The notes under the pieces were generated by a model, which worked only from the letters and a program-made list of their open reading frames with translations, was not told the DNA's origin and did no database searches. Below are positions 2,207 to 47,536 of a stretch of 64,000 bases of DNA, in pieces. Position numbers and translations under genes: made by a program. The DNA comes from an uncultured Gammaproteobacteria bacterium (GTDB lineage Bacteria; Patescibacteriota; Microgenomatia; Daviesbacterales; UBA10151), in contig CAZDFU010000001.1 in assembly GCA_964504985.1 (NCBI GenBank), positions 21,752-85,751 of the forward strand, in the 5' to 3' direction. Numbering within the stretch: position 1 is the stretch's first letter; each line of letters begins with the position of its first letter.

Positions 2207-2230
2207 ATATACTATCGGCTACCTTAGGTG

Positions 2231-10180: not shown

Positions 10181-10200
10181 CAATACTTTATACTTAAACT

Positions 10201-16791: not shown

Positions 16792-17589
16792 ATGGCTGAT
16801 ATTAAGGTAATCTACCAGGATCAGGATTTATTAGTGGTGGATAAGCCTGCAGGTTTGGTGGTTGACGCCTCTGAAACACAAAAAGATCATGTTTTAGCAG
16901 ATATCCTGCAAAAGGAGTTTAAAATAACTCTTGAAAGAGGGGGGATAGTCCACAGACTGGATAAAGATACATCTGGTGTTTTGCTGGTTGCTAAAAACCA
17001 GCAAGCCCTGGAGCATTTGCAGGCTCAATTTAAAGAAAGAAAAACAAAGAAAGAATATTTGGCTTTGGTTCATGGGTTGGTGGAAAAGGGTGGAGTAATA
17101 GATGCTGCAATTTTAAGAAATCCTGAGAATAGAGAAAAATTCATAGCTATTTCCGATCAATCCACCTCGAAGGTGAGCTTTGGCTCCTTCGAGGTGTCTT
17201 CTGCCAGGGAAGCTGTGACAGAATATGAGCCAATAAAGTCATTAGTTATGGGTCCAGAGTTCATAGAAAAGATCTTTGAGGGTTTTAACAAGATTCAGTT
17301 ACGCAAACTACGAACTATGAACTACCAACTCTACACTCTTTTGGCCGTAAGGCCAAAAACTGGACGGACGCATCAAATTAGGGTACATTTAAAACACATA
17401 GGGTATCCTATTGTTTGTGATGAAAAGTATGGAGGCAGGAAAGTGGTAAGGCTGGATAAAAGATGGTGTCCCAGGATGTTTTTGCATGCCAAGAAGATTG
17501 GATTCTATCATCCAAAGTCCGGGGAGTGGATAGAGATGGAAAGCGGGTTGGCAGAAGATTTGAGGGAGGCACTAAGTAAATTAACCTAA
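16792..17589 (+). CDS. RluA-family pseudouridine synthase
   Basis: LLVVDKPAGLVV...HRLDKDTSGVLLVAK catalytic Asp motif; carries an internal hairpin-encoded insert (see findings). Confidence 0.75.
   Translation: MADIKVIYQDQDLLVVDKPAGLVVDASETQKDHVLADILQKEFKITLERGGIVHRLDKDTSGVLLVAKNQQALEHLQAQFKERKTKKEYLALVHGLVEKGGVIDAAILRNPENREKFIAISDQSTSKVSFGSFEVSSAREAVTEYEPIKSLVMGPEFIEKIFEGFNKIQLRKLRTMNYQLYTLLAVRPKTGRTHQIRVHLKHIGYPIVCDEKYGGRKVVRLDKRWCPRMFLHAKKIGFYHPKSGEWIEMESGLAEDLREALSKLT
17162..17196. repeat. TCGA-centred hairpin pair inside the rluA-like CDS
   Basis: CCACCTCGAAGGTG...CTCCTTCGAGGTG: two mutually inverted CACC-TCGAA-GGTG mini-hairpins encoding STSKVSFGSFEV. Confidence 0.6.
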
Positions 17590-17594
17590 TTTAT

Positions 17595-19301
17595 ATGGAT
17601 AATATTTTCATACAACTTGCCATAATTTTGGGTATCTCTTCTTTGCTTGGGTACTTAGTAGTTAAATTTAAGCTGCCCCTTTTAATTGCTTATTTGGTAG
17701 GAGGTTTATTAATTGCTTCAACCTCTGTTTTTGATCCCACAACTTCAGAAGTATTGCATTTTTTACCAGAGATTGGCATTGCTTTTGTATTATTCCTGAT
17801 TGGCATGGAGCTTGATTTAAGGGAGATAAAAAATTTGGGGATCCCGATAATTATAGCAGGATTTTTGCAAATTATTATTACCACGCTTTGTGGTTTTATA
17901 CTGGCTCAGGCCTTTAATTTTGGCATTGCAGAATCAATTTATCTGGGAGTAGGATTATCTTTTTCCTCAACAATTGTGGTAATTAAATTACTTTTGGAGA
18001 AGAAAAACATAACTTCTTTATATGGCAAGCTGTCAATTGGGATACTTCTTTTAGAGGACTTACTGGCAGTTTTAATTTTGCTTGGACTGACAGTTTCTCC
18101 GTCTATGTTTCATCTGGGATTACAACAAACCCTGCCTCTTTTTACCTTTGTTTTAAAAGTTTTCCTGCTTTTTGGAGTGGCTTTAATCTTAAACAGATTC
18201 GCTTTACCAATTATATTCCGCTCAGTTTCTAAATCTTCTGAACTGTTGTTTTTAACAGCCCTGTCATTTTTATTTATTTTTGTTTCTTTTGCCTTGCTTT
18301 TAGGTTTTTCTGTAGTAATTGGGGCATTTTTGGCAGGGGTTGCCCTGGCTTCTTCTCCTTATCATTATCATATCCAGGGCAGGGTTAAACCTTTAAGAGA
18401 CTTTTTTGTGGCTTTGTTTTTTGTTTACCTGGGGACTCAGGCAAACTTTAACGAATTAGGTTCAGTTTATCCTTTGGTAATTATTTTTACCCTCTATGCC
18501 TTAATTGTTAAACCTTTAATTTTCCTTTTGGTTTTGGGAGGGTTTGGTTTTAGAAAGCATACCATGTTTCAAACAGCAGTTAATTTATCTCAAATTTCAG
18601 AATTCTCATTAATAATTTTACTTGTTGGACTGCAGTCTGGTTTGGTTTCATCCCAGGCTTTGACAATAATCACTTTGTCTTTGATAACCTCCATGCTTTT
18701 TTCATCAGTAATGGTTACTCACTCAAATGCTATTTATAAAATTTTAAAACATTTTGTGGCATTTTTTGAAAGAAAAAATATTAAGCATAATTTGGAAATA
18801 GATGATGGCCGTGATTTAAAAAATCATGTGGTGGTTATTGGTGGTCATAGAGTAGGGGGAGAGATAGTTGAGTTTTTAAAAAAAGAGGAAATACCTTTGA
18901 TAGTATTGGATTTTGACCCCAGCCAGGTTGAAAAATTAGTTAAAGAAGGGGTGAAGGTCATTTATGGAGATATATCTGATCCGGAGGTTTTAGAGATGCT
19001 TCAATTGGAATTTTCCAAAATGATCATTTCCACATCTTCTGATGTAGAAGACAATAAGGTGCTTTTGGAAGAGTTAAGGCAAAGGAAGATTGATGCTCCA
19101 GTTGTTGTCAGGGCCTCTACTTTAGAAGATGCTAAGGTTTTATATAAAAAAGGTGCCAGTTATGTGATTATCCCCACGCTTTTGGCAGGTGAATACCTGG
19201 TGGAGAAGTTAAAGAATCATTTAACTGATAAGGAATACTTTGTAAAGAGACCTAAGATTGAGCTTGAGAAACTCCACAGAAAAACTCTGGCCTGGGAATA
19301 A
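17595..19301 (+). CDS. monovalent cation:proton antiporter (CPA2/Kef-type) with C-terminal RCK/TrkA-N domain
   Basis: 12-13 TM helices followed by VVVIGGHRVGGEIVEFL Rossmann-type NAD-binding motif. Confidence 0.75.
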   Translation: MDNIFIQLAIILGISSLLGYLVVKFKLPLLIAYLVGGLLIASTSVFDPTTSEVLHFLPEIGIAFVLFLIGMELDLREIKNLGIPIIIAGFLQIIITTLCGFILAQAFNFGIAESIYLGVGLSFSSTIVVIKLLLEKKNITSLYGKLSIGILLLEDLLAVLILLGLTVSPSMFHLGLQQTLPLFTFVLKVFLLFGVALILNRFALPIIFRSVSKSSELLFLTALSFLFIFVSFALLLGFSVVIGAFLAGVALASSPYHYHIQGRVKPLRDFFVALFFVYLGTQANFNELGSVYPLVIIFTLYALIVKPLIFLLVLGGFGFRKHTMFQTAVNLSQISEFSLIILLVGLQSGLVSSQALTIITLSLITSMLFSSVMVTHSNAIYKILKHFVAFFERKNIKHNLEIDDGRDLKNHVVVIGGHRVGGEIVEFLKKEEIPLIVLDFDPSQVEKLVKEGVKVIYGDISDPEVLEMLQLEFSKMIISTSSDVEDNKVLLEELRQRKIDAPVVVRASTLEDAKVLYKKGASYVIIPTLLAGEYLVEKLKNHLTDKEYFVKRPKIELEKLHRKTLAWE

Positions 19302-19312
19302 TTTTTATCTGA

Positions 19313-20488
19313 ATGCAAAATAAGTTTAAGATTTTACACCAAGACGGTAAGGCAAGATCCGGAATACTGGAAACTGCTCATGGTGCAGTTGAAACCCCAA
19401 ACTTTATTCCAGTTGGCACTAAAGCTTCTGTTAAGGCGCTCTCAAACAGGGATTTAGAAGAGATTGGGGTTCAGATTATCCTTTCTAACACCTATCATTT
19501 AATGCTCAGGCCAGGAGATGAGGTAGTTAAAAAATTAGGGGGTTTACATAAATTTATGAACTGGGATAAGCCCATGATGACTGATTCAGGGGGTTATCAG
19601 GTATTTTCTTTAGGGGTAGGGTTGCAGCATGGGGGCAGTAAAGTATTAAGAAAAGTAGCAAATGGAAAACAGGGAAGCGGGAATTTAAGAAGCAGGCCAA
19701 GATTAAACAAAATATCAGAAGAAGGGGTAACTTTTCAGTCTCATCTGGATGGTAAAAAGTATATGCTTACTCCTGAGTCCTCAATTCAAATACAGGTAAA
19801 TTTAGGGGCAGATCTGATTGTGGCTTTTGATGACCATGAATCAGGCCATTATAATCATGAAGAAACATTAACCTCAGTAGAGTTAACTGAAAGATGGGCT
19901 GAAAGGTCTCTTAATGCCTTAAAAAAGCTCAAAACAGGACAATTGATGTATGGAGTTGTACATGGAGGGGAATTTAAAGACTTAAGAATTAGAAGTGCCA
20001 AATTTACAGATAAATATTTTGATGCTATAGCAATAGGTGGAATCTACCATGATAAAAAAACTTTAAATGATATCTTAGAATGGACAGTTAAATCTGTGTC
20101 AGAAGAAAAAGTAAAACACCTCTTGGGTATTGGAGAAATAGAAAATTTATTTGATGCAGTTGATAGGGGGATAGATCTTTTTGATTGTGTTGCCCCCACG
20201 CGTCTTGCCAGGCATGGTTTTTTATATCCAGGAATTAATATCAGGCTGGCAAAATATAAAGAAGATAAAAACCCAATTAAAAAAGACTGCAGTTGTTTTA
20301 CCTGCCAAAACCATACCAGGGCCTATTTGCATTACCTGCTTGCTGCCGGTGAGTTGCTTTATTACCGGTTAGCCGCTTATCATAATGTTTTCTTTATATC
20401 TAACTTAATGAGGAAAATAAGAGAGGCTATTAAAGAGGGCAGCTTTAAGAAGCTGAAAGCAAAAACGCTCCGATTAAAGGGGAGCTAG
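19313..20488 (+). CDS. tgt: queuine tRNA-ribosyltransferase
   Basis: TPNFIPVGT...DSGGYQVFSL and zinc site CSCFTCQNHTRAYLHYL. Confidence 0.85.
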   Translation: MQNKFKILHQDGKARSGILETAHGAVETPNFIPVGTKASVKALSNRDLEEIGVQIILSNTYHLMLRPGDEVVKKLGGLHKFMNWDKPMMTDSGGYQVFSLGVGLQHGGSKVLRKVANGKQGSGNLRSRPRLNKISEEGVTFQSHLDGKKYMLTPESSIQIQVNLGADLIVAFDDHESGHYNHEETLTSVELTERWAERSLNALKKLKTGQLMYGVVHGGEFKDLRIRSAKFTDKYFDAIAIGGIYHDKKTLNDILEWTVKSVSEEKVKHLLGIGEIENLFDAVDRGIDLFDCVAPTRLARHGFLYPGINIRLAKYKEDKNPIKKDCSCFTCQNHTRAYLHYLLAAGELLYYRLAAYHNVFFISNLMRKIREAIKEGSFKKLKAKTLRLKGS

Positions 20489-20527
20489 TTAAGCCCCCCT
20501 TTACCTTCAAATTCTTTGCAAAGAATT

Positions 20528-20749
20528 TTAAACTACTGGTGTGCCACCAGCGGGATTTTGGTCAGTGCCTGTTTCGCTTTCACCCTCACCGCCTTCTTCA
20601 GTTGGTGTTTCTACAGGTGTTTCTCCTGCTGGAGTTTCTGTAGGAGTTTCTGGTTCCTGAGATGGTTGAGGTGTATCACCTATTCCACCTTGACCCTGGT
20701 CGTCTGCTGGTACATTTGTGCCCATTCCGCCTTGATTTGAATCGTCCAT
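20528..20749 (-). CDS. small acidic low-complexity protein (Pro/Glu/Thr/Gly-rich)
   Basis: Strong RBS AAGGGGGTGA 7 nt upstream of the ATG on the minus strand; the overlapping + ORF (Cys/Trp-rich) looks spurious. Confidence 0.45.
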   Translation of the reverse strand: MDDSNQGGMGTNVPADDQGQGGIGDTPQPSQEPETPTETPAGETPVETPTEEGGEGESETGTDQNPAGGTPVV

Positions 20750-20830
20750 TAAAATATCACCCCCTTCCGTCCACTTAGTTTATCTTTAAAGTAGTTGTCA
20801 GGTCAATACCTTTTTAGGTACACTAAAAAT

Positions 20831-21811
20831 ATGCCTTCATGGAGAACTGTCCAATCCAAAAGACAACTGACACAAAAAACTAAATTAGCAGTTTTTGTTT
20901 TGGCTCTAGTATTGGGGTTATTGCTTTTATCCCAGATTGTTAAAGTTACCCAAATAATATTTAGCCCCTGGAAGTTGCAGACAGATAATCAAAAAAAGTT
21001 TTCATGGAATGGGGATTTTAATATAAATTTATTAGTCCGTTCTGGAAAAACTTCACTGGTATCTTTTAGTCCTCAGAATGAGGAAATTACTATTATTAAT
21101 ATTCCTGATTCATTGTTTTTTGAAACAGCATACGGTTTTGGTAAATGGCAGTTCCGTTCTATTTATGATCTGGGTGAAGGAGAAAAAGGTTTAGGAGGAA
21201 ATAAACTAATAAAAAGCAGCCTCTCTTCATTATTTGCTTTACCAATTGATGGGGTAGTGGAGGGTGATTTAGTAAACCTTATCAAAGAAGATAAGTTCTC
21301 AATGCTGAGTGTTTTATTTGACCTTAAATCAGAACTTACACTTATGGAACTAATAAGATTCCAGATTGATGTATCAAGAGTACGGTTTGATAAAGTTAGC
21401 CAGATTGATTTGGAAGAGCAAGGTGTTTTGGAAAAAAGCAATCTTCCTGATGGGAGCGGGGTTTTAACTGCTGATACTGTAAAGCTAGACTCAGTTTTAT
21501 CAAATATGATTGATCCTCTGCTTTCCAAAGAGCATAAAACTATTGCTGTTTTTAATTCAACTGAACACCCCCTGCTTGCCCAAAAAGCAGCCAGGTTAAT
21601 CACTAATATAGGAGGTGATGTTATTATAGTCTCAAACGGCAAAAATAAGCTAAAAACAACTGCAATTTCAGGTGATCAATCAAAGACTTTGGAGCGTCTT
21701 AAGCAAATTTTTGAAGCAAGTGGTACAATTGACCCCAATGATGAGGATTTAGCCTCATCCAGAGCCCAAATCACTTTATTTTTGGGTGAGGACTATTATT
21801 TAAAACAATAA
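20831..21811 (+). CDS. LytR/CpsA/Psr (LCP)-family cell-envelope protein
   Basis: N-terminal TM anchor then NINLLVRSGKTSLVSFSPQ...ITIINIPDSLF..., matching the LCP core pattern (RSDTIM...IPRDT). Confidence 0.5.
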   Translation: MPSWRTVQSKRQLTQKTKLAVFVLALVLGLLLLSQIVKVTQIIFSPWKLQTDNQKKFSWNGDFNINLLVRSGKTSLVSFSPQNEEITIINIPDSLFFETAYGFGKWQFRSIYDLGEGEKGLGGNKLIKSSLSSLFALPIDGVVEGDLVNLIKEDKFSMLSVLFDLKSELTLMELIRFQIDVSRVRFDKVSQIDLEEQGVLEKSNLPDGSGVLTADTVKLDSVLSNMIDPLLSKEHKTIAVFNSTEHPLLAQKAARLITNIGGDVIIVSNGKNKLKTTAISGDQSKTLERLKQIFEASGTIDPNDEDLASSRAQITLFLGEDYYLKQ

Positions 21812-21821
21812 GGGGTTAATT

Positions 21822-22490
21822 ATGATCTTATGGATATTGTTGTTTGGGCTGGTTGTAGCTATCTCTTTTGTGCTTGCATTTAAATCCATGCACGATTTTC
21901 AGGAGATCCCTGCTGAAGGAGGAGAAGAATATGGGTTATTCTTAATCCGCAGACTCAGCCAGCTAAACAAGCAACTCTTAACCTCTTTTCATAAAGAACT
22001 ATCAACCTCAACTCTTTTTATCAGTTTTGAGAGGCTTATAAAAGGGACAAAAGCTGCTTTGGTTGTATACGGCCCAAAAAAAATATTAGCCAAATATAAA
22101 CAACAACTTGATCTTTTAGAGCTTGAAGATTATACAAATGTAAGACCTGAACAATTTGCAGCCTGGGAGGTAGTTGTTAAACATGCTGGTAAACCTGGTT
22201 TTCCGCCTGTGCCTGCTGAGGATCAAATATGGTGGCAGCTGATATTATCTACCAAAGAGGGGAATTTTTTTCATCCCCATATAAGATTGGCAGTGGTATC
22301 TAACCATCCAAAAAGAAGGGATATTCTTAAGGCAAAACTTGCAGATTTGTCACCAGACAAATTTGTAAAATTACCCAACACCTTTTCTAATACCCAGTTG
22401 CTTGATTATTACAATAAAAGAGGTTTTAGGAAAGATGCGCACAATAAGAATCTGAATCCAGATGATGTTATCAGGTTACTTGATGTTTGA
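21822..22490 (+). CDS. membrane-anchored hypothetical protein
   Basis: N-terminal TM helix; no recognisable domain. Confidence 0.4.
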   Translation: MILWILLFGLVVAISFVLAFKSMHDFQEIPAEGGEEYGLFLIRRLSQLNKQLLTSFHKELSTSTLFISFERLIKGTKAALVVYGPKKILAKYKQQLDLLELEDYTNVRPEQFAAWEVVVKHAGKPGFPPVPAEDQIWWQLILSTKEGNFFHPHIRLAVVSNHPKRRDILKAKLADLSPDKFVKLPNTFSNTQLLDYYNKRGFRKDAHNKNLNPDDVIRLLDV

Positions 22491-22496
22491 AAGAAG

Positions 22497-23252
22497 TTAT
22501 ACTACCTGTTCTTCTTCAGCATTTTCCGCATCTTCTTCGTTTTCATTTTGATTATCTAAAGGGGTGAGGATTTCGTGAGTTAAAGTGGAGTCAGAATTTT
22601 CCAAAAATGAGGGTTGATTTTTAAACCTTTTACTTCTATAAATTTCCTTAACCAGCACTGCTAAAGCATTTACCTTAATGGATTTAATAAATAAATCATA
22701 TTTGTTCCCACCGCGGAGCAGTCTTATCAGATGATGACAAATATCATCTGGTAAAACTCCCAGGTAATTAGCATTACTATCTACTATGGTAATTTTCCTG
22801 TTTTTTATAATCATATTAACCTTCATACCGCAATATGCTCTTGATAATTTTTGTGGTTCTGCTACTTTTAAAAGATTGACAATTCTTGTTTTTCCAGGTT
22901 CTTGTAAAAAAAGGGAAGCTGATAGTTTTAGGGACGGAGAAAATTTTACTAGGCCGTTTGCCTGAATTTCTTCCTTTTTCCCATTAGGTTTAAAAGATTT
23001 AATGATTTTTAAATTTTTTATGGCAATTGGGTTATATGGATCAATTCTTACAACTTCAGAATAGTATTTCTTTGCCAAATTATACTTATCCATTTCCATA
23101 TAAACCCGGGCCTGGCGGTTTAGCGCATCAACATTTTGAGGGTCCAGTTTTAAGATTTGTTTGTTCAACTTTAAGGCATCATCCCAGCGGGAATCCAGTG
23201 CAGCCTCGATAGCGTTATGAGTTAAGTTTGAAGACAGGGGAGATTGATCCAT
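22497..23252 (-). CDS. TPR-repeat protein with acidic C-terminus
   Basis: N-terminal TPR-like repeats (ALKLNKQILKLDPQNVDALNRQARVYMEMDKYNLAKKYYSEVVRIDPYN). Confidence 0.5.
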   Translation of the reverse strand: MDQSPLSSNLTHNAIEAALDSRWDDALKLNKQILKLDPQNVDALNRQARVYMEMDKYNLAKKYYSEVVRIDPYNPIAIKNLKIIKSFKPNGKKEEIQANGLVKFSPSLKLSASLFLQEPGKTRIVNLLKVAEPQKLSRAYCGMKVNMIIKNRKITIVDSNANYLGVLPDDICHHLIRLLRGGNKYDLFIKSIKVNALAVLVKEIYRSKRFKNQPSFLENSDSTLTHEILTPLDNQNENEEDAENAEEEQVV

Positions 23253-23374
23253 CTAAGGGAAAAAGTATAGAAGAGAAAGAAAGGGTTGTCAATGGTTTCG
23301 CATAATATTTGCCTGGTTTAATTTGTTTCAGTTGTTAAAATAACCAATGCTGTCTTGAAAGTACATTCTAAACC

Positions 23375-23388
23375 CTATACACTATACT
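23375..23388 (+). promoter_or_regulatory. CTATACACTATACT motif upstream of yebC (candidate promoter for a leaderless mRNA)
   Basis: TATACT ends 8 nt before the ATG; no SD sequence. Confidence 0.35.
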
Positions 23389-23395
23389 GATTCTC

Positions 23396-24151: not shown

Positions 24152-24204
24152 AGTAAAGCTTTATATTAATTAGAAAACTTAGGGTAAAAGATAAAGAAAA
24201 TTTT

Positions 24205-25518: not shown

Positions 25519-25519
25519 T

Positions 25520-26440: not shown

Positions 26441-26443
26441 TTT

Positions 26444-27187: not shown

Positions 27188-27196
27188 GCTTTCTAA

Positions 27197-28126: not shown

Positions 28127-28137
28127 TCCAGGGAAAG

Positions 28138-28923: not shown

Positions 28924-28971
28924 TTAGGATCTTGAGAGCCAACTGACTTACCTTAGCGGTGGATGATTGGG

Positions 28972-29319: not shown

Positions 29320-29386
29320 TGATTCATTAATCTCATAAATATTTTAGATTGTCAATGATTGACAAGCCAAACATGCTTATGTAATA

Positions 29387-30430: not shown

Positions 30431-30448
30431 TCTGATTGGTAGTGTAAT

Positions 30449-30742: not shown

Positions 30743-30755
30743 AGTCCAGAGTAAT

Positions 30756-30968: not shown

Positions 30969-30969
30969 T

Positions 30970-34842: not shown

Positions 34843-34927
34843 AAATTGAGGCCTGAAAAAAGAGCTTGCGCCCGGATTTGATTATACCTGTTTTAGCTTC
34901 TTATAAGCAAGACACAATATAGCTAAG

Positions 34928-35572
34928 CTAAGAAGATAAAGGGTGTTTTTTGGGCCAGGTTTTCCAGGCCATTTTATTTCCGGAGGAAAGAACTTGTCCA
35001 TCTCTGTATAAAGGAAATTCATCTTTTTCAACTTCATGAAGATGATCAGGATTTTTGATATGATCATAAAATAAAATTCCATTAAGGTGATCAATTTCAT
35101 GTTGGAAAATCCTGGCTATGTAACCGGTCCATTTTTCCTCTATAGAAGTCAACCTGGGAGGTTGTTTAGCTAGACGGCCTAGGGATTTTAAGACAATTGC
35201 CCTGATTTTAATGGCTTTCGGTCTGGAAACAATACCGCAGATTTTGCCGGTTGAGTAACAACCCTCATACCATTTTGCTTTTGTTTTAGAACTCCATATA
35301 ATTTCTGGATTAACATATATTCTTAAATCGCCTACTTTTCCTCTTCCATTAGCTTTTGTATCAACCAAAATAATTCTTTTTGAAATACCAATTTGAGGGG
35401 CAGCAAGTCCAACCATAATTGGTTTTTTACTATTTTTTTGTTCCCCATGAGCAATTTTAAGCATTTTTTCTATAATTTTTTTAGTTTGATTGGAAAGAAT
35501 TTCTTGCGCTGGTATTTTTGAAGATCTTTTTTTAAGAAGCAGATTATTAGGTTTTAGAAATAAATTTCTCAT
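34928..35572 (-). CDS. def: peptide deformylase
   Basis: GLAAPQIG, EGCYS and HEIDHLNG motifs; start assigned to the internal Met. Confidence 0.8.
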   Translation of the reverse strand: MRNLFLKPNNLLLKKRSSKIPAQEILSNQTKKIIEKMLKIAHGEQKNSKKPIMVGLAAPQIGISKRIILVDTKANGRGKVGDLRIYVNPEIIWSSKTKAKWYEGCYSTGKICGIVSRPKAIKIRAIVLKSLGRLAKQPPRLTSIEEKWTGYIARIFQHEIDHLNGILFYDHIKNPDHLHEVEKDEFPLYRDGQVLSSGNKMAWKTWPKKHPLSS

Positions 35573-35600
35573 TTTCCCGGGTTGAGTATATAATATTCCA

Positions 35601-36779
35601 ATGAGCAAGTTGAGAGTAGGTTGGTTTTTTGGTGGCAGGTCTACAGAACATGAAGTTTCTGTGATAACAGCCCTTCAGGCATACGGGAATCTAAATAAAG
35701 AAAAGTATGAAGTAATTCCTATATATATTAGTAAGCAGGGTGATTTTTATACCAACTCTAAATTTTTAGAACTTAAGAATTACAAAGATATTGATTTTCT
35801 GGTTTTATCCTCAACCAAAATTACCATGGGAAGAAAAGATGGAAAAGGTGGATTTTTCACACAAGGTTTTTTGGGAGGGTTTACTCCCCTGGATTTAGCT
35901 TTCCCTCTTTTTCATGGATCATTTGGGGAAGATGGCTCTTTTCAAGGTCTTATGGAAATGTGTCAAATTCCCTATTCAGGATTTAATGTTTTGGGAGGGG
36001 TAGTTTCCATGGATAAAGAAATTTCCAAAGCCTTCTTTCAATCTTTAGGATTTTTAACAGCAAAAGGAGTCAGTGTACAAAGAAATGATTGGAACCAAAA
36101 TTCTAAAAAAATATTAAAAGATATAACTTCCCAAATAAAATTTCCTGTATTTGTAAAACCTGCTGATATTGGTTCAACAATTGGAGTAAATAAAGCAAAT
36201 GACCTGCAACAGTTAGATTTTAATATAGAGGTAGCTTTTACATATTCAGATAAGGTGATTATTGAAGAGAGCTTAGAAGGATTAATGGAAGTTAATTGTG
36301 CAGCTTTGGGGTACAAAGAAGTGATTGCCTCAGTTTGTGAAATGCCTGTTAGATCTGGGGATAGTTTGTCATATGCGGATAAATATATGAAAGGCAGTAA
36401 GGGTTCAAAGGGAAGTAAGGGTGCTGGAATGGCTTCATTAACAAGACAAATCCCTGCTCCAATTTCTCAAAGTTTAACTAAAAAAATTCAGGATGCAACA
36501 GTTAAAATTTTTAAGGCCATGGAGGGTTGCGGGATTGCCAGAATTGATTATTTTGTAGATCGTAAAAAAGAAACTTTTTATGTTAATGAAGTGAATTCTC
36601 CTCCAGGGTCCTTGGCTTTTTATCTTTTTGATGTATTAGAAGTGGGAATAAAATATCCTGTTCTTTTGGATAGGATTATTGAAGATGGTTTGAAGCGTTT
36701 TGAAGATCAAAAAAAGACCCAATTTACTTTTAATTCACCCCTTCTTTCTCAACTGGCTCAAAAAGGTTCGCCTCGCTGA
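35601..36779 (+). CDS. ddl: D-alanine--D-alanine ligase
   Basis: VGWFFGGRSTEHEVSVITA N-terminus and ATP-grasp C-terminus; contains a (KGS)x3 insertion. Confidence 0.85.
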   Translation: MSKLRVGWFFGGRSTEHEVSVITALQAYGNLNKEKYEVIPIYISKQGDFYTNSKFLELKNYKDIDFLVLSSTKITMGRKDGKGGFFTQGFLGGFTPLDLAFPLFHGSFGEDGSFQGLMEMCQIPYSGFNVLGGVVSMDKEISKAFFQSLGFLTAKGVSVQRNDWNQNSKKILKDITSQIKFPVFVKPADIGSTIGVNKANDLQQLDFNIEVAFTYSDKVIIEESLEGLMEVNCAALGYKEVIASVCEMPVRSGDSLSYADKYMKGSKGSKGSKGAGMASLTRQIPAPISQSLTKKIQDATVKIFKAMEGCGIARIDYFVDRKKETFYVNEVNSPPGSLAFYLFDVLEVGIKYPVLLDRIIEDGLKRFEDQKKTQFTFNSPLLSQLAQKGSPR

Positions 36780-36831
36780 AGTTTCGGCGAGCGGGTGAAG
36801 CTACGCCAAAGGCGGGCGAAGCGGGCAATCT

Positions 36832-38280
36832 CTAATTATACTGATCCGGCAAGTCACCTTCTAAAAGTACGGTAACTTTTCCGTCTGTTCTAGCCAGTCT
36901 TTGGATATATTCTCCAGCAAGTTGTTCAGCTAGGGATATTCCCTCTTTTGTGGAGTTTGCAAAATAAACCCTGTCTTCTGATGTCACCATTTTTATCCCT
37001 GTGACTAAATCAGCTTTATTTTCTTCCCCCACTATAATAACCTCATCTGCAACAGTGGCAATTTCTTTTCCCAGCTTTTTATTTGCCCCAGCTGCCTCTT
37101 TTCCTAACTCCACAAATCCCGGGGTAATTATTATTTTTCGATAGTCTTTAAATTGTGAAAGCAATTTCAAAGAGCCTTCTGTTGATTTTGGATTTATATT
37201 GTAGGAATTATCAATCAAAGTAATTTGCCCCATTTTTTTAATTTCCAACCTGTGTGGAGTTGGCAGTAAAAGCTTTGCTCTTTCTTTAATTTCTTCTAAA
37301 GTTAAGCCAACCTCTATTGCAGCAATTGAGGCAGCTAAAAAATTAACAGCATGATGCTCTCCAATTAAAGGGATCTGAATGTCTGCTTTCCCCTTAGGGG
37401 TAATGAGTGTAAAAGCAGTTCCTTGTATTGTTGTTTTAATATTACTTATTCTGTATTGATCATCATCCCTTCCATAAAAATCCGTGCGGATACCTTCGAG
37501 GTTCACGCACAGATTGGTTAACATTTTATAGTTTCCGTTTAATAGAATAACTCCTTCACTTTTTACATTCTCTGCCAGTTCAAATTTGGCTCTGGCAATA
37601 TTTTCCAAAGAGCCAAATTTTTCCAGATGTTGTGGGGCTACTGCAGTGATTATCCCAATACTTGGTTTGATAAGTTTGGTAATTTTGGCAATCTCTCCTT
37701 TTTTATAAGCTCCAACTTCACAAATAAAAACATCAGTATTTTCTTTAACAAGTTCTAAAACAGTTTGAGTAATCCCTAAAGGAGTATTAAAACTTTTTGG
37801 GGTTTTTACAACGAAGTATTTCTTAAATAAAAGTGTATGTAAAATATCTTTGGTGGAAGTTTTCCCAAAAGAACCTGTGATAGCTATAACCTTTAAGTTA
37901 GAAAGCTTTTCTAATTTTTCTTTTGCTGCTGAGATAATTTTTCTTTTTTGATAATACTCAATTGGCCAGATTAAAATTTGAGAAGCAATTAAAAAAAGTG
38001 GAGAAAAAAATGCTTTTAATGGTAAGAAAAAAATAACTGTCCATACATTATTAAAAAAATAAAGTGAGTTAAATAGACTATCAATTATTATTAAAGAAAA
38101 AGAAACTAAAAATAAAAATTTTGCTTTTGATGTCCAAGTAAGTTTGTGCTTTTTTTGCAAGTTTCTTTTGAAAGGATTTTTTAAAAACCACTTCAAAAAA
38201 TCAAACCAGTTATATTCCAAAACCTGGAATATGTATAAGTGATCAATTAATGGGAATATTTTAAACATAATCTTCAACAT
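36832..38280 (-). CDS. murF: UDP-N-acetylmuramoyl-tripeptide--D-alanyl-D-alanine ligase, with N-terminal TM extension
   Basis: AITGSFGKTSTKD P-loop and Mur ligase middle/C domains. Confidence 0.8.
   Translation of the reverse strand: MLKIMFKIFPLIDHLYIFQVLEYNWFDFLKWFLKNPFKRNLQKKHKLTWTSKAKFLFLVSFSLIIIDSLFNSLYFFNNVWTVIFFLPLKAFFSPLFLIASQILIWPIEYYQKRKIISAAKEKLEKLSNLKVIAITGSFGKTSTKDILHTLLFKKYFVVKTPKSFNTPLGITQTVLELVKENTDVFICEVGAYKKGEIAKITKLIKPSIGIITAVAPQHLEKFGSLENIARAKFELAENVKSEGVILLNGNYKMLTNLCVNLEGIRTDFYGRDDDQYRISNIKTTIQGTAFTLITPKGKADIQIPLIGEHHAVNFLAASIAAIEVGLTLEEIKERAKLLLPTPHRLEIKKMGQITLIDNSYNINPKSTEGSLKLLSQFKDYRKIIITPGFVELGKEAAGANKKLGKEIATVADEVIIVGEENKADLVTGIKMVTSEDRVYFANSTKEGISLAEQLAGEYIQRLARTDGKVTVLLEGDLPDQYN
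37483..37510. repeat. imperfect TCGA-centred palindrome inside murF
   Basis: CCGTGCGGATACCTTCGAGGTTCACGCAC; encodes CVNLEGIRT on the minus strand. Confidence 0.5.
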
Positions 38281-39004
38281 AGGTTATAAATAATTTGGGG
38301 TTATGGGTATGCAAAAAATGCCCCATTCCCTCTACTATCACAATCTTAGAATTTTTTATTTTCTGATACATCCTTATCCCGTATTTTAATGGTACAGCCC
38401 TGTCTTCTTCTCCCCAAATAATCAATGTTTCATTTTTTATTTTTTCTAAATCAGATGATAAATCCTCTTTTAAAGTTTTTACTAAAGCGTCTTTCATTAC
38501 ACCTGCATCATAATAATCTGACTCGAGTCTTATGTAAAACTTTTTCCTGATAAGGGATTTAAGATTAAAAACATCCGGTACTAAAAAATGTCCAATTCTT
38601 GCCAGTGAATAAATGATTGACCTTTTTAAATTCATATCTGTTTTCATACCTGATGCTCCTGCAATAACTAACTTATCAATTAGGTCTCCATTTTCAGCTG
38701 CCAGTCTTAACGAAACTTTCCCTCCAAAAGAATGTCCTAAAAGTGAGGGTTTTTTGATTCTCATTTTATTAATAAATTTTTCAATAATTTTGGCATAGTT
38801 ATTTGAATTAAATACTTGTTTTGGAACATCACTTCTGCCAAAGCCGGGCAGATCAATTAACCAAAGCGTGTAATTTTGCGATAAAGATTCTATTAAGCCC
38901 CAAAATGTTGAAACATCCTGTCCCCAGCCATGAAGCATTATTAAGTCAGGTCCTTTACCAACTTTTTGGTAATAAATATTTAAACCATTAATAGCCGTGT
39001 ACAT
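38261..39004 (-). CDS. alpha/beta-fold hydrolase
   Basis: GHSFGG nucleophile elbow; HG..Q oxyanion region. Confidence 0.65.
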   Translation of the reverse strand: MYTAINGLNIYYQKVGKGPDLIMLHGWGQDVSTFWGLIESLSQNYTLWLIDLPGFGRSDVPKQVFNSNNYAKIIEKFINKMRIKKPSLLGHSFGGKVSLRLAAENGDLIDKLVIAGASGMKTDMNLKRSIIYSLARIGHFLVPDVFNLKSLIRKKFYIRLESDYYDAGVMKDALVKTLKEDLSSDLEKIKNETLIIWGEEDRAVPLKYGIRMYQKIKNSKIVIVEGMGHFLHTHNPKLFITYVEDYV

Positions 39005-40122
39005 TAGATGATTACCCTTTTTATTGATGATGCTAAATTGACTAAAATTTCATAAGGAATTTTTCCACAAAGTTTGGCTGTATTTATAATAGAATTTTTA
39101 TCTTTTGGATTACCTGAATAAATTATTACCTCCTGACCCACTTTTGGATTTTTTATATTAGTTAAATCAATTGCACAAATATTCATACTAATTCTGCCGA
39201 CATATTTACAGTATTTATCATTAACCTGAACAAAGCCTATATTTGATAAATTCCTATCAACTCCATCATAGTAACCAATTGGCAAGATTCCAAGAGTCAT
39301 TTGTTTTTCGGCTCTAAATATTCCGTTATACCCTACTCTATCCTGGGTATTTATTTTCTTAATCTGAATGATTTTGCTTTTTAATGAGAGAACGGGTTTT
39401 AATTTATGTTTTTTAGAAATGCCATACAGAGCAATACCTGTCCTTGCTAAATTTACGTTTACACCTTTAAGGTGTAAAGCTAAACCATCTGAGTTTTGCA
39501 GGTGGATCCATTTAGGATTAAAACCACTTTTTCTTATTATCTCCAATGCTTTTTTAAAGTTTTTAATTTGCATTTTATTTAAAGGATCTTTTTTATCATC
39601 AGATGAAGCAAAGTGTGACATTAAACCATCAATTGTTAAATTTTTAAATTGTTTTAATGCTTTCAGCAGTTCAGGTAAATCTTCTAATTTTACCCCTTCC
39701 CTATTCATGCCAGTATCTACAAAAATATGTACCTTACATCCTGGTTGGTATTTATTCAAAACCTGAGTAGTTTCTAAATCAAATAAAGCATACGAAAACG
39801 GGAGTTGTTTTACTTTTAAATTTCCAGGATCTGTATAGCCCATTATTAAAATAGGGGTTTTTATTCCTAATTTTAAAAGCTCATATGCCTCATACAATGA
39901 ATCAACACAAAAATATGGGGCATTAACTGGATCCAAGATTTTGGCAACAATATTTATCCCATGTCCATAAGCATTGCTTTTTAGAACTAGCGCTACTCTC
40001 ACCTTTTTATCAATCAAGGATAGGTATCTATAATTTGAGAGCAGATTATTTTTTGAAATCTCTATCAAATTTAAAACCCGATAATCTCTTTTAAATTTTC
40101 CTAGTAAATTATTAATCATCAA
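39004..40122 (-). CDS. alr: alanine racemase
   Basis: VALVLKSNAYGHGI PLP-lysine motif. Confidence 0.8.
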   Translation of the reverse strand: MMINNLLGKFKRDYRVLNLIEISKNNLLSNYRYLSLIDKKVRVALVLKSNAYGHGINIVAKILDPVNAPYFCVDSLYEAYELLKLGIKTPILIMGYTDPGNLKVKQLPFSYALFDLETTQVLNKYQPGCKVHIFVDTGMNREGVKLEDLPELLKALKQFKNLTIDGLMSHFASSDDKKDPLNKMQIKNFKKALEIIRKSGFNPKWIHLQNSDGLALHLKGVNVNLARTGIALYGISKKHKLKPVLSLKSKIIQIKKINTQDRVGYNGIFRAEKQMTLGILPIGYYDGVDRNLSNIGFVQVNDKYCKYVGRISMNICAIDLTNIKNPKVGQEVIIYSGNPKDKNSIINTAKLCGKIPYEILVNLASSIKRVII

Positions 40123-40219
40123 ACGGCAGATTAATAATTATACTGCAATGAAATATTTATTTCCTTTATCCAATATATTGTGGATTGACTAAAGTTTATG
40201 TCTGATTTATTGTGGTAAT

Positions 40220-40747
40220 ATGAATTTCAAACTACTTGCATTTATCTTAATACTGCTTGGAATATTTTCCAGAATCATTCCTCATGCTCCAAATATTGCT
40301 GCAATCACTGCCCTAATGATTTTTAGCGGTAGCAACTTACCAAAAAGATTTTTATGGGTGTCTTTTGCAGCTCTTTTCATCAGTGATTATTTCATTGGAT
40401 TCTATGGAACTGATATGCTTTGGGTGTATGGAAGTTATGCCTTAATTGGCCTTTTAGGATTTTGGCTAAGGAGTCACAAAAAACCTACCAATGTTTTATT
40501 TACAGCTTTTAGCTCATCTGTTTTATTTTTCCTGATTACTAATTTTGGTGTCTGGGCCCCGCCAAATAATTGGTATCCTCATACTCTTGAAGGTTTAATT
40601 CAAAGCTATGCATTAGCACTTCCCTTTTTCAGAAATAGCTTAATTTCTGATATAGCTTACACAGTGATTTTATTTGGGGGTTATGAATTGATTAAAAGAT
40701 TTTCTAAGAATTACCTGCCCCAAAAACTTTTTCAACTGCTGTATTAA
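40220..40747 (+). CDS. integral membrane protein, unknown function
   Basis: 5-6 TM helices. Confidence 0.4.
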   Translation: MNFKLLAFILILLGIFSRIIPHAPNIAAITALMIFSGSNLPKRFLWVSFAALFISDYFIGFYGTDMLWVYGSYALIGLLGFWLRSHKKPTNVLFTAFSSSVLFFLITNFGVWAPPNNWYPHTLEGLIQSYALALPFFRNSLISDIAYTVILFGGYELIKRFSKNYLPQKLFQLLY

Positions 40748-42056
40748 ATTTTCTTCCCCTATCAAATTCATTCTGGAAAAGATTAAATGAGGTTGCTCCC
40801 GGAGAAAAAAGAATTATGTCCCCAGGTTCTGCTATTTTTTTTATGTCATTTAATAATTCATCCAAATTATTATATTGGCCTTTTCCTTTAACAATAAAAG
40901 GTTTTCTTAAATATTTTTTCAATTCATCTGTGGCATCACCTTCTATTAGAAATAACGCTTTAGCAGGATTATAAGTTTCAATTTCAGCTGCTAATTTATG
41001 ATATTCCATTCCTTTATTCATTCCTCCTGCAATTAAAATAACATTGGGATTTCCTAAAGAAGCAAGGGCATGAATAGTAGCAATAGGATTGGTAGAAGTA
41101 GAGTCATTAATGATCTTAATTCTCCTATATTCCCCTATCTCTTCCATTCTAAAAGGTTGACCCCTAAAATTTTGAAAAGCTTGAAGAATTATATTCTTAT
41201 CAATTCCTATAGTTTCACAAACACTTTCTGCTGCCGCATAATTTTCTAAATTGGCAGAACCCTTTAAGGGAAAATCTATATTTCTATTATCTTCTGAAAA
41301 ATCCTCCTCACAAAAAAATGATATTTGAGATTTGATTCCTTTTAAAAAGTCATCTCTATTTAAAATTTTATTACATGAAATAAATAAAAAATCATCTGCT
41401 GTTTGACCTTTTGCAACAATTTTTTTTGCTTCAATATATTCTTCCATTGATGAGTGCCAATTTAGGTGATCTGGATAAATATTAGTGATCAGTGCTATAT
41501 GAGGAGAAAAATTTTTGTACTTTAAACAATGTAGCTGAAAAGAGGAAATTTCTACAACAATCCATGGATCATTTTTTAAAAAAGGAATAACTTCCAAAAT
41601 ACTTTTACCAATATTTCCTGCAAAAATAACTTCTTTACCTGAAAGCTTCATTACTTCATAAATTAAAGAAGCAGTTGTTGATTTGCCTTTGGTTCCTGTA
41701 ACAGCAATAATTTTCTTCTGATTTGCAATTTGTAGAAAAATGGATAAATCTGTTTCTACTTGTTTTCCTATTTCCTGGGCACATTGAAGATAAGGATTAT
41801 TATCTCTTATTGCTGGGTTTCTGATAATAATATCTGCCCAGATAATATCTTCATTTTTATGTTCTCCCAGGGTATATTCAATATCAGGAAAATCTTTAAG
41901 TTGACTTAGTGAGTCTTTTAAGATCTCTTTAGATTTTAAATCAGTAACTTTAACTTTGGCTCCAAGTGAGGCAAAAAACCTAGCAGTACCTACACCGCCC
42001 TGATTCAAGCCCAAACCAAGTATTAATATTTTTTTGTCCTTGTAGATATTTTCCAT
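40704..42056 (-). CDS. murD: UDP-N-acetylmuramoylalanine--D-glutamate ligase
   Basis: IAVTGTKGKSTTASLI P-loop; N-terminal Rossmann GLGLNQGG. Confidence 0.8.
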   Translation of the reverse strand: MENIYKDKKILILGLGLNQGGVGTARFFASLGAKVKVTDLKSKEILKDSLSQLKDFPDIEYTLGEHKNEDIIWADIIIRNPAIRDNNPYLQCAQEIGKQVETDLSIFLQIANQKKIIAVTGTKGKSTTASLIYEVMKLSGKEVIFAGNIGKSILEVIPFLKNDPWIVVEISSFQLHCLKYKNFSPHIALITNIYPDHLNWHSSMEEYIEAKKIVAKGQTADDFLFISCNKILNRDDFLKGIKSQISFFCEEDFSEDNRNIDFPLKGSANLENYAAAESVCETIGIDKNIILQAFQNFRGQPFRMEEIGEYRRIKIINDSTSTNPIATIHALASLGNPNVILIAGGMNKGMEYHKLAAEIETYNPAKALFLIEGDATDELKKYLRKPFIVKGKGQYNNLDELLNDIKKIAEPGDIILFSPGATSFNLFQNEFDRGRKFNTAVEKVFGAGNS

Positions 42057-42068
42057 TTAAAGCTATTT

Positions 42069-42878
42069 TTGGTATTATATCGCTCTATGAACAGTAATCC
42101 AATTGGAGTTTTTGATTCAGGCATTGGCGGATTAACAGTTGTCAAAGAAATTATCCAACAGTTACCAAATGAAAATATTATTTATATAGGTGATACAGCC
42201 AGAGTTCCTTATGGCACTAGAGGCAAAGAAGTCATAGAAAAGTTCGCTTTGGAACTTGTTAACTTTCTTTTAAAAAAGAATGTCAAAGTTTTAATTGTTG
42301 CCTGTAATACCATCTCAGCTACTTGTTTAGATGAAATCAAAAAGATATCACCTGTTGCTGTAATAGGTGTTATTAATCCTGCCATAAATTCTGCAATTAA
42401 GACTACAAAAAATAACAGGATTGGTGTAATTGGTACAACTGCAACAATAAGCAGTAAAATTTATGAGAAGGGTTTAGGTAAAGAGATTAAAGTTACATCT
42501 AAAGCCTGTCCTTTATTTGTTCCTTTAACTGAAGAAGGTTTAAAAAATCATCCTGCAGCTAAATTAATAGCTAAAGATTATTTGAAAAAAATTTCTAAAT
42601 CTTCAATAGATACTCTTATACTAGGATGTACCCACTACCCAATTTTAAAAGAAGTTATCCAAAATGTTGTAGGTAAAAAAGTGAAATTAGTTGATTCTGC
42701 CAAGCCAACTGCAAAAGAATTAAAAGCCCTCTTAGAAGAAAAAGGATTGAGGAATGGTAAAAAAAACCCTAAGTATGATTTTTATGTGACTGATATAACT
42801 AACAGGACTCAGGAGATTGCGGAAAAGTTTTTTGGTAATAATTTTTCAATAAAATTAATTAAAACTCTCTTAACTTGA
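42069..42878 (+). CDS. murI: glutamate racemase
   Basis: IGVFDSGIGGLTV and ACNT...GCTHYP motifs. Confidence 0.85.
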   Translation: MVLYRSMNSNPIGVFDSGIGGLTVVKEIIQQLPNENIIYIGDTARVPYGTRGKEVIEKFALELVNFLLKKNVKVLIVACNTISATCLDEIKKISPVAVIGVINPAINSAIKTTKNNRIGVIGTTATISSKIYEKGLGKEIKVTSKACPLFVPLTEEGLKNHPAAKLIAKDYLKKISKSSIDTLILGCTHYPILKEVIQNVVGKKVKLVDSAKPTAKELKALLEEKGLRNGKKNPKYDFYVTDITNRTQEIAEKFFGNNFSIKLIKTLLT

Positions 42879-44207
42879 CACTAATTCTTTAGCTAATTTG
42901 TCAGTATCCCCAGCGCTCATGAAAAAAACAATATCCCCTTCCTTTATTTCTGGTCTTAATTTATCCAGGACTCCATTGGTAGAACCAATATATTTAACAA
43001 AGTCTTTATCTACTGATTCAACCAATTGTTTACTGGTAACAAGGTCAGTATCCAGCTCTCTTGATGGGTAAATATCCATGATAAATACTTTATCAGCAGG
43101 TAATTCTTTAAATACCTTAATAAAATCTTCAAATAGTGCTTTGGTTCTGGAAAACATATGGGGTTGATAGATCATTAATATCCTATTATTTGGAAATTTT
43201 TCCCTGGCTGCTTTGATAGTTTCTTTTATTTCAGTTGGATGATGGCCAAAATCAGAATAAACTTTTGCTCCATTATATTCCCCAATATACTCAAACCTTC
43301 TTCCTACTCCTGAATAATTTTGTAGGCTTTTTAAAATTGTTGCAGGTTTAATATTTAAAAGCAGCCCAACCTGAAAAGCAGCTAAGGCATTTGATTTATT
43401 AAAATCCCCGGGAATTTTTAAACTTAAATTAATTTCATTTTTAGAATAATCCACTGCGGGAGTTGGTATTTCTTTCATAACAACTTTTAAAACATCAGCA
43501 ACTTCTTTATTTTCTAAATTAGCAACAATTGTTCCTTTGGTTTGAAGAAGAAATTTTTTGAAACTCTCTTTATATGTTTCAAGATCTTTAAAATATTCCG
43601 GGTGGTCCATCTCAATATTTGTGACAATAGAGATATTTGGTTTTAATGATAAAAAATTGTCATTAAATTCATCTGCCTCAACAACAAAATACCCCTTATC
43701 GCTCAGGGTAAGTTTCCCTTTTCCATTTCTAAAATTTGCTTTCCATCTTGGGACAATTGCTCCAAGTAAAACAGTTGGGTCTAGATCAGCGTCTTCTAAT
43801 ACCTGGGCAATCATTGCTGTGGTTGTTGATTTGCCGTGAGTACCGCTGACTGCAATTACAAATTTATCTTTTGTTAAATATTTCCCTACAAATTGCTGCC
43901 AGGTCATGATTTGAATCCCACTCTTTTTAGCAGCAACAAGTTCTGGATTATCCGGATCGAGTGAAAATATGGCGGGAGTAACAGCCAAAATATCTACGCT
44001 GCAACCTTCGAGGTTGCAGCGTAGATGGTTTATATGATGGCCTTGAAAAAGTTGGGATTTTTTGAATGGTTTGGTGAATTCATTATCAATATCTAAATCA
44101 CAACCAGTTATTTCATATCCTTGGGCCTGGGCAATAACAGCAGCAGCAGATGTCCCTGACCCACCTATTCCCAAAAAATGTACCTTCATGAAGTGATTAT
44201 ATATCAA
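42870..44207 (-). CDS. murC: UDP-N-acetylmuramate--L-alanine ligase
   Basis: VHFLGIGGSGTSAAAVIA and IAVSGTHGKSTTTAMIA. Confidence 0.85.
   Translation of the reverse strand: MIYNHFMKVHFLGIGGSGTSAAAVIAQAQGYEITGCDLDIDNEFTKPFKKSQLFQGHHINHLRCNLEGCSVDILAVTPAIFSLDPDNPELVAAKKSGIQIMTWQQFVGKYLTKDKFVIAVSGTHGKSTTTAMIAQVLEDADLDPTVLLGAIVPRWKANFRNGKGKLTLSDKGYFVVEADEFNDNFLSLKPNISIVTNIEMDHPEYFKDLETYKESFKKFLLQTKGTIVANLENKEVADVLKVVMKEIPTPAVDYSKNEINLSLKIPGDFNKSNALAAFQVGLLLNIKPATILKSLQNYSGVGRRFEYIGEYNGAKVYSDFGHHPTEIKETIKAAREKFPNNRILMIYQPHMFSRTKALFEDFIKVFKELPADKVFIMDIYPSRELDTDLVTSKQLVESVDKDFVKYIGSTNGVLDKLRPEIKEGDIVFFMSAGDTDKLAKELVSS
43994..44024. repeat. perfect 31-nt palindrome (13-bp arms around TTCGA) inside murC
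   Basis: CTACGCTGCAACC-TTCGA-GGTTGCAGCGTAG; encodes LRCNLEGCSVD in a variable loop of MurC. Confidence 0.65.

Positions 44208-44250: not shown

Positions 44251-47536
<3,286 letters not shown>

Follow-up and report, generated by a model that had tools for sequence, protein, structure and literature searches.

Several genes in the 64-kb stretch of DNA analysed here (the window) contain short palindromes that are translated in frame, which raises the question of how such sequences came to lie within them. A preliminary description of this DNA had pointed to three of these sites, in murC, murF and a gene of the rluA family, as a second family of hairpins beside a first one. We consider, with a probability of about 0.8, that the palindromes are REP-type repeats (REP, repetitive extragenic palindromic) of a repeat/transposase system in Daviesbacteria-like bacteria of the candidate phyla radiation (CPR). 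Judged from its MurC and RluA homologs, the window (G+C content about 37%) comes from a CPR lineage near Candidatus Daviesbacteria (Microgenomates), the closest relatives showing about 70–75% protein identity.

The palindrome-bearing genes are ordinary ones: those of Mur ligases, an RluA-family pseudouridine synthase, alanine racemase, an M1 peptidase, peptide deformylase and a DNA polymerase III delta'-like protein. Relatives are represented by DNA loci of about 21 kb per related genome, designated by L-numbers, and the genome itself by the 64-kb window. The MurC comparison comprised 120 homologs at the protein level and the DNA of 80 genome loci, and the RluA comparison 120 orthologs.

Palindromes within genes of the window

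The sites belonging to the second family are the following.

43992–44026, minus strand: REP-type palindrome in murC (gene 42870–44189, minus strand), with a perfect 16-bp stem and a 3-nt loop, 35 nt in all
About 37479–37515, minus strand: imperfect palindrome in murF (gene 36832–38280, minus strand), a divergent member without canonical flanks
17160–17197, plus strand: REPIN-like doublet (REPIN, REP doublet forming a hairpin) of two inverted units in the rluA-family gene (16792–17589, plus strand)
39453–39483, minus strand: canonical member in the alanine racemase gene alr (39004–40122, minus strand), absent from the preliminary description
55413–55431, plus strand: weak sequence that may belong to the family, GCCCACCT-GGA-AGGTGTAG, on the 5' border of a pilin-like open reading frame (ORF) at 55431–55967, with a stem of 5 bp only

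The three sites first described are present at the places given for them, and the translations proposed for the MurC, MurF and RluA segments hold. The murC palindrome is perfect, as had been claimed, but exceeds the 13 bp and 31 nt initially attributed to it. On the coding strand it reads ATCTACGC-TGCAACCT-CGA-AGGTTGCA-GCGTAGAT, that is ATCTACGCTGCAACCT-CGA-AGGTTGCAGCGTAGAT, and it is translated into HLRCNLEGCSVD, residues 55–66 of MurC. Folded as single-stranded DNA it has an energy of −19 kcal/mol (z = −9.6), equalled in 0 of 200 shuffles. In a structural model of MurC (mean pLDDT 89.9), the palindrome segment is predicted to be a coil between the helix 53–57 and the strand 67–70, with a local dip in confidence.

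Protein length had been thought to be preserved in MurC. This applies to the comparison with H. influenzae MurC only, the equivalent loop of which has the same length; the window MurC segment has six additional codons relative to insert-free Daviesbacteria orthologs (HLENVDIL), and the RluA segment exceeds the baseline by about 14 residues. Between the conserved H-L and V-D-I-L, the 120 MurC homologs differ widely, from those that have no insert (HLENVDIL) to those with as many as 70 residues. At the DNA level the murC inserts are palindromes of several kinds, including TTCCCAC...GTGGGAA, CACCCC...GGGGTG, TGCAACCT-NNN-AGGTTGCA, ACCCCGATT-N-AATCGGGGT and long inverted repeats encoding CHPERSEG...QNDK peptides. 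The first-family element is also found among them, in both orientations (L005 and L045). In the murC genes of L016 (10185–10211) and L032 (10180–10203), a 21-nt unit, (G/A)CCCCGATT-N-AATCGGGGTA, stands beside the existing hairpin; it is bordered by repeated GTAG(A) and looks like an insertion next to a GTAG target.

The rluA site consists, as previously described, of two mutually inverted copies, CCACCT-CGA-AGGTG (17162–17175) and CTCCT-TCG-AGGTG (17184–17196), separated by a 10-nt spacer. The doublet folds as a single long hairpin (−14.2 kcal/mol, z = −5.9) and is translated into STSKVSFGSFEVS. The site is an insertion hotspot among the 120 orthologs: the baseline sequence ...VL-E-E-G-KEAVTEYEP is broken in many homologs by palindrome-encoded peptides, which include TSK(V/E)S...FEV(S/F), the type of the window. 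At the DNA level, CGA/TCG doublets occupy the orthologous site in L084, L085 and L086.

The alr copy, TTAGCT-TTACACCT-TAA-AGGTGTAA-ACGTAA, encodes LALHLKGVNV. In orthologs this site is occupied either by other palindromes (L001, L021, L025 and L042) or by a loop that is comparable in length but unrelated. The murF palindrome is imperfect, as first stated, and extends on both sides beyond the limits 37483–37510 given for it. Its coding strand, AATCTGTGCG-TGAACCT-CGA-AGGTATC-CGCACGGATT, encodes CVNLEGIRT; the palindrome folds with −10.9 kcal/mol (minus strand, z = −4.9) or −8.9 kcal/mol (plus strand, z = −3.7). The 3' half, ...CGCACG, which encodes the residues RT, is common to murF of L002 and L015 and to the murC inserts of L003, L012 and L020. 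Other murF orthologs contain a TTCCCAC unit (L019 and L058) or a duplicated unit (L004).

The ortholog comparison proposed in the preliminary description thus covers murC, murF and rluA, and at the murC and rluA sites inserts are present, different or absent in relatives. The murC, rluA and alr sites are hotspots, with different palindromes or none in orthologs, and the insert types have a patchy spread on a neighbour-joining MurC tree. The copies in murC, murF and alr are singlets, and that in rluA is a doublet of the REPIN kind.

Dispersed copies and transposase genes in relatives

The palindromes belong to a superfamily of repeats of 20–35 nt with the core [C/A]ACCT-NNN-AGGT[G/T], frequently enclosed by asymmetric flanks, which in one orientation read [G/T]TAGCT-core-[A/G/T]CGTA[A/G]. 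Three different cores, TTCCCAC, TGCAACCT and TTACACCT, are found between the same flanks. In the 95 sequences that match the flank motif, paired core positions have a bimodal distribution, with 7–8 of 8 positions paired in 28 of them. In the 23 canonical copies, double-sided changes occur in 6 of the 8 pairs of the inner helix, and two flank positions (G.G and C.C) are non-pairs conserved in 22 copies. The loops vary across the family (GAA, GGA, CCC, CGG and TAA besides CGA/TCG), and the TCGA centre that had been taken as its defining feature is the commonest loop variant only.

Exact repeats inside single genomes are mostly palindromic units of 21–31 nt. For example, a 29-nt unit, TAGCTTCCCACTCGTCAAGTGGGAACGTA, is found in both murC and murF of L019; a 30-nt unit, TTACGCTGCAACCTCCGAGGTTGCAAGCTA, occurs twice in L026, and another 30-nt unit twice in L004. 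L006 carries a 52-nt nested composite, a TTCCCAC hairpin with a second element in its loop, at 6026–6077 and again at 10159–10210; its presence at two loci of one genome indicates that the composite itself was copied. Short imperfect palindromes of 21–35 nt are thus dispersed in identical copies at unrelated loci. Up to six copies of the TTCCCAC subfamily are found in one 21-kb locus (L021), and the window contains the murC, murF, rluA and alr copies together with five copies of the first family.

Most copies lie within genes. In the TTCCCAC subfamily 45 of 47 are inside ORFs of at least 100 amino acids, and in the [C/A]ACCT family 50 of 59 are within ORFs; ORFs of at least 100 amino acids cover 94% of the DNA of the loci, so that coding sequence is not avoided by the repeats. 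The four window copies described above are all intragenic and are unusual in this respect only, REPs being found as a rule between genes. One reading frame is used by 42 of the 45 intragenic TTCCCAC copies, and two frames are used in the TGCAACCT subfamily. The frame bias was considered as a possible targeting signal and rejected: of the alternative TTCCCAC frames, one is shut by TAG/TAA in the flanks and the other encodes the bulky FPHRKWE, and selection would suffice to explain it.

Metagenomes were scanned with the pattern TGCAACCTNNNAGGTTGCA, which has 16 specified bases and for which about 100 chance hits were estimated from the size of the collection. The scan returned 120 loci, many of them from unrelated GC-rich organisms, and roughly 20–25 low-GC contigs were taken as family members by their canonical flanks. 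The unit is read in frame in these contigs, giving LQPxRLQ or CNLxGC.

In relatives, the palindromes are associated with genes resembling those of RAYTs (REP-associated tyrosine transposases). These genes were located by tblastn with transposase sequences as queries, and the hits were examined again against Pfam and NCBIfam as well as with a profile derived from them. The hits are ORFs of about 215–220 codons located directly between palindrome copies. They score 27.8–34.7 bits against Pfam Y1_Tnp (gathering threshold 23), and their top NCBIfam match is REP_Tyr_transpos. The protein family to which they belong is large, and its named members all come from Daviesbacteria or Microgenomates. The profile search of all loci identified 18 RAYT-like ORFs; palindrome-flanked genes are found in L207, L183, L026, L121, L166, L010, L017, L040, L036, L009, L012, L018 and L052.

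In several of these loci the flanking repeats are of the types found in the window. In L207 (Candidatus Daviesbacteria, GCA_016192255.1), the Y1_Tnp gene at 10001–10666 is preceded by GTAGCT-TGCAACCT-CGA-AGGTTGCA-TCGTAG and followed by AGCAACCT-CGA-AGGTTGCT, and the repeat just upstream of it is identical to the murC hairpin of the window over the 19-nt core and loop. The repeat flanking the gene of L183 has 24 consecutive nucleotides identical to this hairpin. The flanks in L026 are T[G/T]ACACCT-CGA/TCG-AGGTGTAA, the same type being present in frame in holB of that locus, and the flanking type of L040 is also found in frame in its murC. The 5' flank has the tetranucleotide [G/T/C]TAG before CT, with GTAG in the transposase-proximal copies of L207 and L026, and on the 3' side the flank reads CGTA[A/G]. 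The [G/T/C]TAG sequence resembles the GTAG tag without being identical to it.

A second clade of RAYT-like genes (L009, L012, L018 and L052) has three-armed units of the first family as inverted flanks, at +19821/−20593 in L009, +11915/−12682 in L012, +10689/−11451 in L018 and +2113/−2879 in L052. The flanking copies of L018 have CGA/TCG loops, and one of them is identical to the first 17 nt of the rluA insert of the window. The relation between the two families suspected in the preliminary description is in this way supported, and both families are REP-type repeats of two RAYT clades.

The superfamily that supplies the repeats flanking the second clade is represented in the window by the three-armed first family, in the following positions.

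47427–47470, minus strand: three-armed copy in the holB-like gene (46856–47536), CCCACCT-GGG-AGGTGGA-CTAGGTAGG-CAACCT
8442–8485, minus strand: copy within the M1 peptidase gene (6934–9498)
9476–9519, minus strand: copy across the stop codon of the M1 peptidase gene
35143–35185, plus strand: degenerate copy within the peptide deformylase gene (34928–35608)
2217–2260, minus strand: divergent copy at the 3' end of ORF 2231–2749

In L003, L010, L040, L052 and L058 a three-armed element lies about 85 nt upstream of murC (approximately 9913–9955), and in L010 and L040 such an element directly follows the gyrB stop codon. It contains TTGACA and is followed by a T-rich tail, and could be a terminator or part of a promoter. 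The TTGACA was considered as a −35 box upstream of murC; the nearest TATAAT is 35 nt away, which does not make a standard promoter.

Some further observations were made. The region 6699–19084 of L207 has two Y1_Tnp (RAYT-like) genes less than 7 kb apart, with uvrC, uvrA and uvrB in between and around them; intragenic REPs have often been found in repair genes (PMC3733652). Metagenome contig L171, with a G+C content of 0.54, encodes a RAYT-like ORF of 285 amino acids (11137–11994) amid arrays of CCGCAACCTGTCAGGTTGCGG repeats, suggesting that a similar GCAACCT core serves as a REP outside CPR bacteria too. In the window, the GyrB ORF (44251–46836, minus strand, 861 amino acids) has an intein, with a match to Pfam Intein_splicing at residues 475–658, between the GyrB and Toprim domains. 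An AT-rich repeat, CTCCTAACTCTGAACTCTGAACTAATAACTAAT..., is located at ORF starts, at 11683–11723, 56469–56503 and 59000–59040 (inverted); it is just upstream of ORFs 11724 and 59036, overlaps ORF 56460 and may have a regulatory or promoter role common to these genes.

Origin of the repeats and of the perfect stems

The mechanism that we propose is as follows. REPs are imperfect palindromes of small size that form hairpins when the DNA is single-stranded; in related genomes a Y1/HUH tyrosine transposase gene (RAYT-like) of about 215–220 codons is located between palindrome copies, and further copies are dispersed elsewhere. As there is almost no intergenic space in these genomes, the copies to survive would be in-frame ones that lack stop codons and occupy surface loops tolerant of them, where they would be translated as 6–15 extra residues. 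Permissive loops would be hit, replaced or emptied repeatedly in separate lineages, and so become indel hotspots. The RAYT probably mobilizes the repeats, and the inserts are probably neutral passengers. The murC copy of the window would be an older shared insertion, the asymmetric flanks of which were later made fully complementary.

The perfect murC stem is specific to this lineage. A homologous CNLEGC insert is present in five orthologous murC alleles (L001, L081, L082, L083 and L167), all with asymmetric flanks (5' TTAGCT or TTAGAT, 3' [A/G]CGTAG) and an inner stem of 8–9 bp. Relative to these alleles, the window has TTA GCT/GAT replaced by CTA CGC; the four changes fall in a 7-nt span of the 5' arm, and all of them make Watson–Crick pairs with the conserved 3' arm. 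The window copy is the sole exception to the conserved flank mismatch among the canonical copies. Four clustered changes, all towards complementarity, are the signature of a template switch (quasi-palindrome correction), and the flanks were most likely made perfect by an intramolecular template switch during replication. The hairpin-directed gene conversion envisaged earlier fits this step.

A second perfect hairpin in the window, with a stem of 13 bp, lies at 51345–51377 in a T2SSF-like gene (50453–51655) and is not an insertion. Approximately 29 orthologs have a quasi-palindrome there, the 3' arm of the window differing by four clustered complementing changes (GAT GCT -> ACA GCA). This pattern suggests that the same process acted independently at another site in this lineage. 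In both murC and the T2SSF-like gene, clustered substitutions thus perfect an inverted repeat relative to outgroups. Downstream of the T2SSE/T2SSF-type genes, the window contains six pilin-like genes with a common N-terminal methylation motif (51.7–58.5 kb).

Several points weigh against the repeat/transposase reading. The NCBIfam scores of the RAYT-like ORFs are 52–64 bits, below the equivalog cut-off of 80, and no RAYT-like ORF was found within the 64-kb window by tblastn and the profile search. The orientation of the flanks in the first RAYT clade is ambiguous, the cores being palindromic, and the flank motifs of L026 have the same direction. The 94.6% pairing of the inner helix in the 23 canonical copies is inflated by the selection of this set for at least 6 of 8 paired positions. 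The neighbour-joining MurC tree, being shallow and poorly resolved at 65–75% identity, shows patchiness only and gives no gain or loss counts. The murF copy has no canonical flanks and only about one residue more than its orthologs; because of this small gain, an insertion at murF remains putative. The case for mobility is drawn from the distribution of the copies.

In E. coli, REPs are bound by gyrase or IHF. It is improbable, though the best placed of the alternatives, that the palindromes here are likewise selected functional structures, whether mRNA hairpins acting in translation, folding or decay, DNA hairpins or protein-binding palindromes, which resemble each other through a shared ligand and without copying. 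Ortholog sites do keep their palindromy while the sequence shifts, with many double-sided changes; synonymous positions of the stem are invariant across genomes where flanking conserved codons vary, and roles as RNA or DNA elements have been attributed to REPs (PMC3733652). Against this, many orthologs are insert-free (HLENVDIL in MurC, VL-E-E-G-KEA in RluA), so that the structure is dispensable there. The loop sequences fall into discrete subfamilies common to genes and genomes, without drift, and identical copies of 29–52 nt, the nested composite among them, occupy loci of one genome that are unrelated to each other. Transposase genes, moreover, have these units at their sides. An Rfam scan of the window at the gathering threshold returned one tRNA only, and no Rfam family matches the palindromes. 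Somewhat less probable still is a purely local origin, in which template switching builds or extends inverted repeats in variable loops with no mobile element or transposase. The two clustered complementing cases of the window agree with such a process, and template switching has been described as creating and perfecting hairpins (PMC8794818, PMC8604942 and PMC7202029). It leaves unexplained, however, the same 19–31-nt sequences with the same non-pairing flanks in unrelated genes and genomes, as well as the palindromes on both sides of RAYT-like genes.

A footprint of restriction–modification or of a nuclease at TTCGAA- or TCGA-like targets, as suggested in the preliminary description, is very unlikely. 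All four window copies contain TCGA and account for 4 of just 27 occurrences in 64 kb; but the sites have CTTCGAG or CTCGAAG and in no case TTCGAA, TCGA is not avoided but over-represented (27 observed against a Markov expectation of 13.7), and the family has many other loops. That the palindromes arose by chance from the codon usage of AT-rich genes can be considered effectively refuted, in agreement with the initial judgement. The window does have many short palindromes of high A+T content, counts of 7–8-bp stems are near the shuffled expectation and perfect hairpins with stems of at least 8 bp are in modest excess (23 against 15.9). Perfect stems of at least 12 bp, however, number 2 where 0.07 are expected, and the motif ACCTNNNAGGT occurs 10 times against 0.98 expected, a number reached in 0 of 100 shuffles. 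Chance would also have to produce the 16-bp perfect stem of murC, with the z-score reported above, and the recurrence of the same sequences across dozens of independent assemblies. The motif CCTTCGAGG has exactly four copies in the window, every one of them inside the murC, murF and rluA sites. A DNA uptake sequence (DUS) or uptake signal sequence (USS) was rejected as a candidate, as no k-mer is in strong excess either in the window or across 0.94 Mb of Daviesbacteria loci.

Among the origins proposed in the preliminary description, the repeat/transposase reading corresponds to the tiny mobile palindrome: the cores flank RAYT-like genes, identical copies are found across genes of one genome, and orthologs differ in presence and absence. 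A bolder version of it, which we advance tentatively, is that the REP/RAYT system is essentially intragenic in Daviesbacteria-like CPR bacteria and forms a standing source of loop insertions in essential proteins such as MurC, MurD, MurF, Alr, HolB, RluA, Def and PepN. Particular loops would be filled, exchanged and emptied again and again. Besides mere tolerance, the repeats might be directed to [G/T]TAG-like sequences, or the hairpins might have a function in mRNA or single-stranded DNA. If this version were true, the repeats would be a lineage-wide driver of protein-length variation rather than occasional passengers.

The repeats offer a concrete origin for many short, odd indels in CPR proteins, which touches alignments, phylogenies, structure prediction and annotation. 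They provide a natural map of the loops of essential enzymes that tolerate 6–15 extra residues, and extend REP/RAYT systems to a candidate-phylum lineage in which the repeats are almost wholly inside genes. The two clean cases of palindrome perfection in coding sequence, with outgroups, are useful for the study of template-switch mutation in bacteria.

Comparison with known systems

A literature search of incomplete coverage yielded no account of such elements in CPR genomes. Several known systems have features in common with them. Quasi-palindrome mutation (PMC7202029, PMC8794818 and PMC8604942) resembles the present case in that clustered multinucleotide changes complete one arm (the murC flanks and the T2SSF hairpin); it accounts for the perfection step only, not for the origin or spread of the family. 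The coding palindromes of Nematomorpha mitochondria (PMC6649704) are also perfect inverted repeats in frame in protein genes; they reach 284 bp, are organellar and have neither a dispersed family nor a transposase. With IS200/IS605 (PMC6006769), the present system shares a related transposase fold (Pfam Y1_Tnp) and subterminal hairpins recognized as single-stranded DNA. It differs in that there is no tnpB, its flanking hairpins are also found by themselves at dispersed sites, and the gene is apparently present in a single copy or low copy number per locus.

Rickettsia palindromic elements (RPEs), which Ogata et al. reportedly introduced in 2000, are said to be selfish palindromic repeats lying in frame in essential genes of a reduced, gene-dense genome, in surface regions. 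Insertion in frame into the genes of essential proteins, tolerated in surface regions, is also what is found here. RPE-1 is about 100–150 bp long and has no known cognate transposase. The elements described here are much shorter, 20–35 nt, and are tied to RAYT-like genes. Two other elements, RPE-4 and RPE-6, have been equated with CGTC REPs (PMC3733652).

REP doublets form hairpins known as REPINs (Bertels and Rainey 2011, PMC3116915). The rluA copy has this architecture in a very small form, with two inverted units, a poorly conserved spacer and one long hairpin. Its unit starts are about 22 nt apart, as opposed to 71–110 bp, it lies in frame, and most of the other copies are singlets.

The closest likeness is to REP/RAYT systems, or REPtrons (Nunvar et al. 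2010, PMC2817692; Di Nocera et al. 2013, PMC3733652), in which imperfect palindromes of 20–40 nt are repeated through the genome and flank a Y1/HUH transposase gene. As there, palindromy is kept by complementary changes and there are several REP types per genome; the [G/T]TAG-like tetranucleotide by the stem resembles the tag of these systems. Intragenic REPs encoding 20–30 residues are known from Opitutus terrae and Rickettsia conorii (PMC2817692 and PMC3733652). Intragenic copies are a minority in the described systems, whereas here, in the subfamilies counted, most are intragenic and in frame. The host is a member of the Microgenomates, one RAYT clade has a three-armed unit, and in place of a simple GTAG or CGTC tag there are the flanks [G/T]TAGCT...CGTA[A/G] with a conserved C.C/G.G mismatch. 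The REP/RAYT kind is thus a known one, and what differs is its in-frame, intragenic setting in a Daviesbacteria-like genome.

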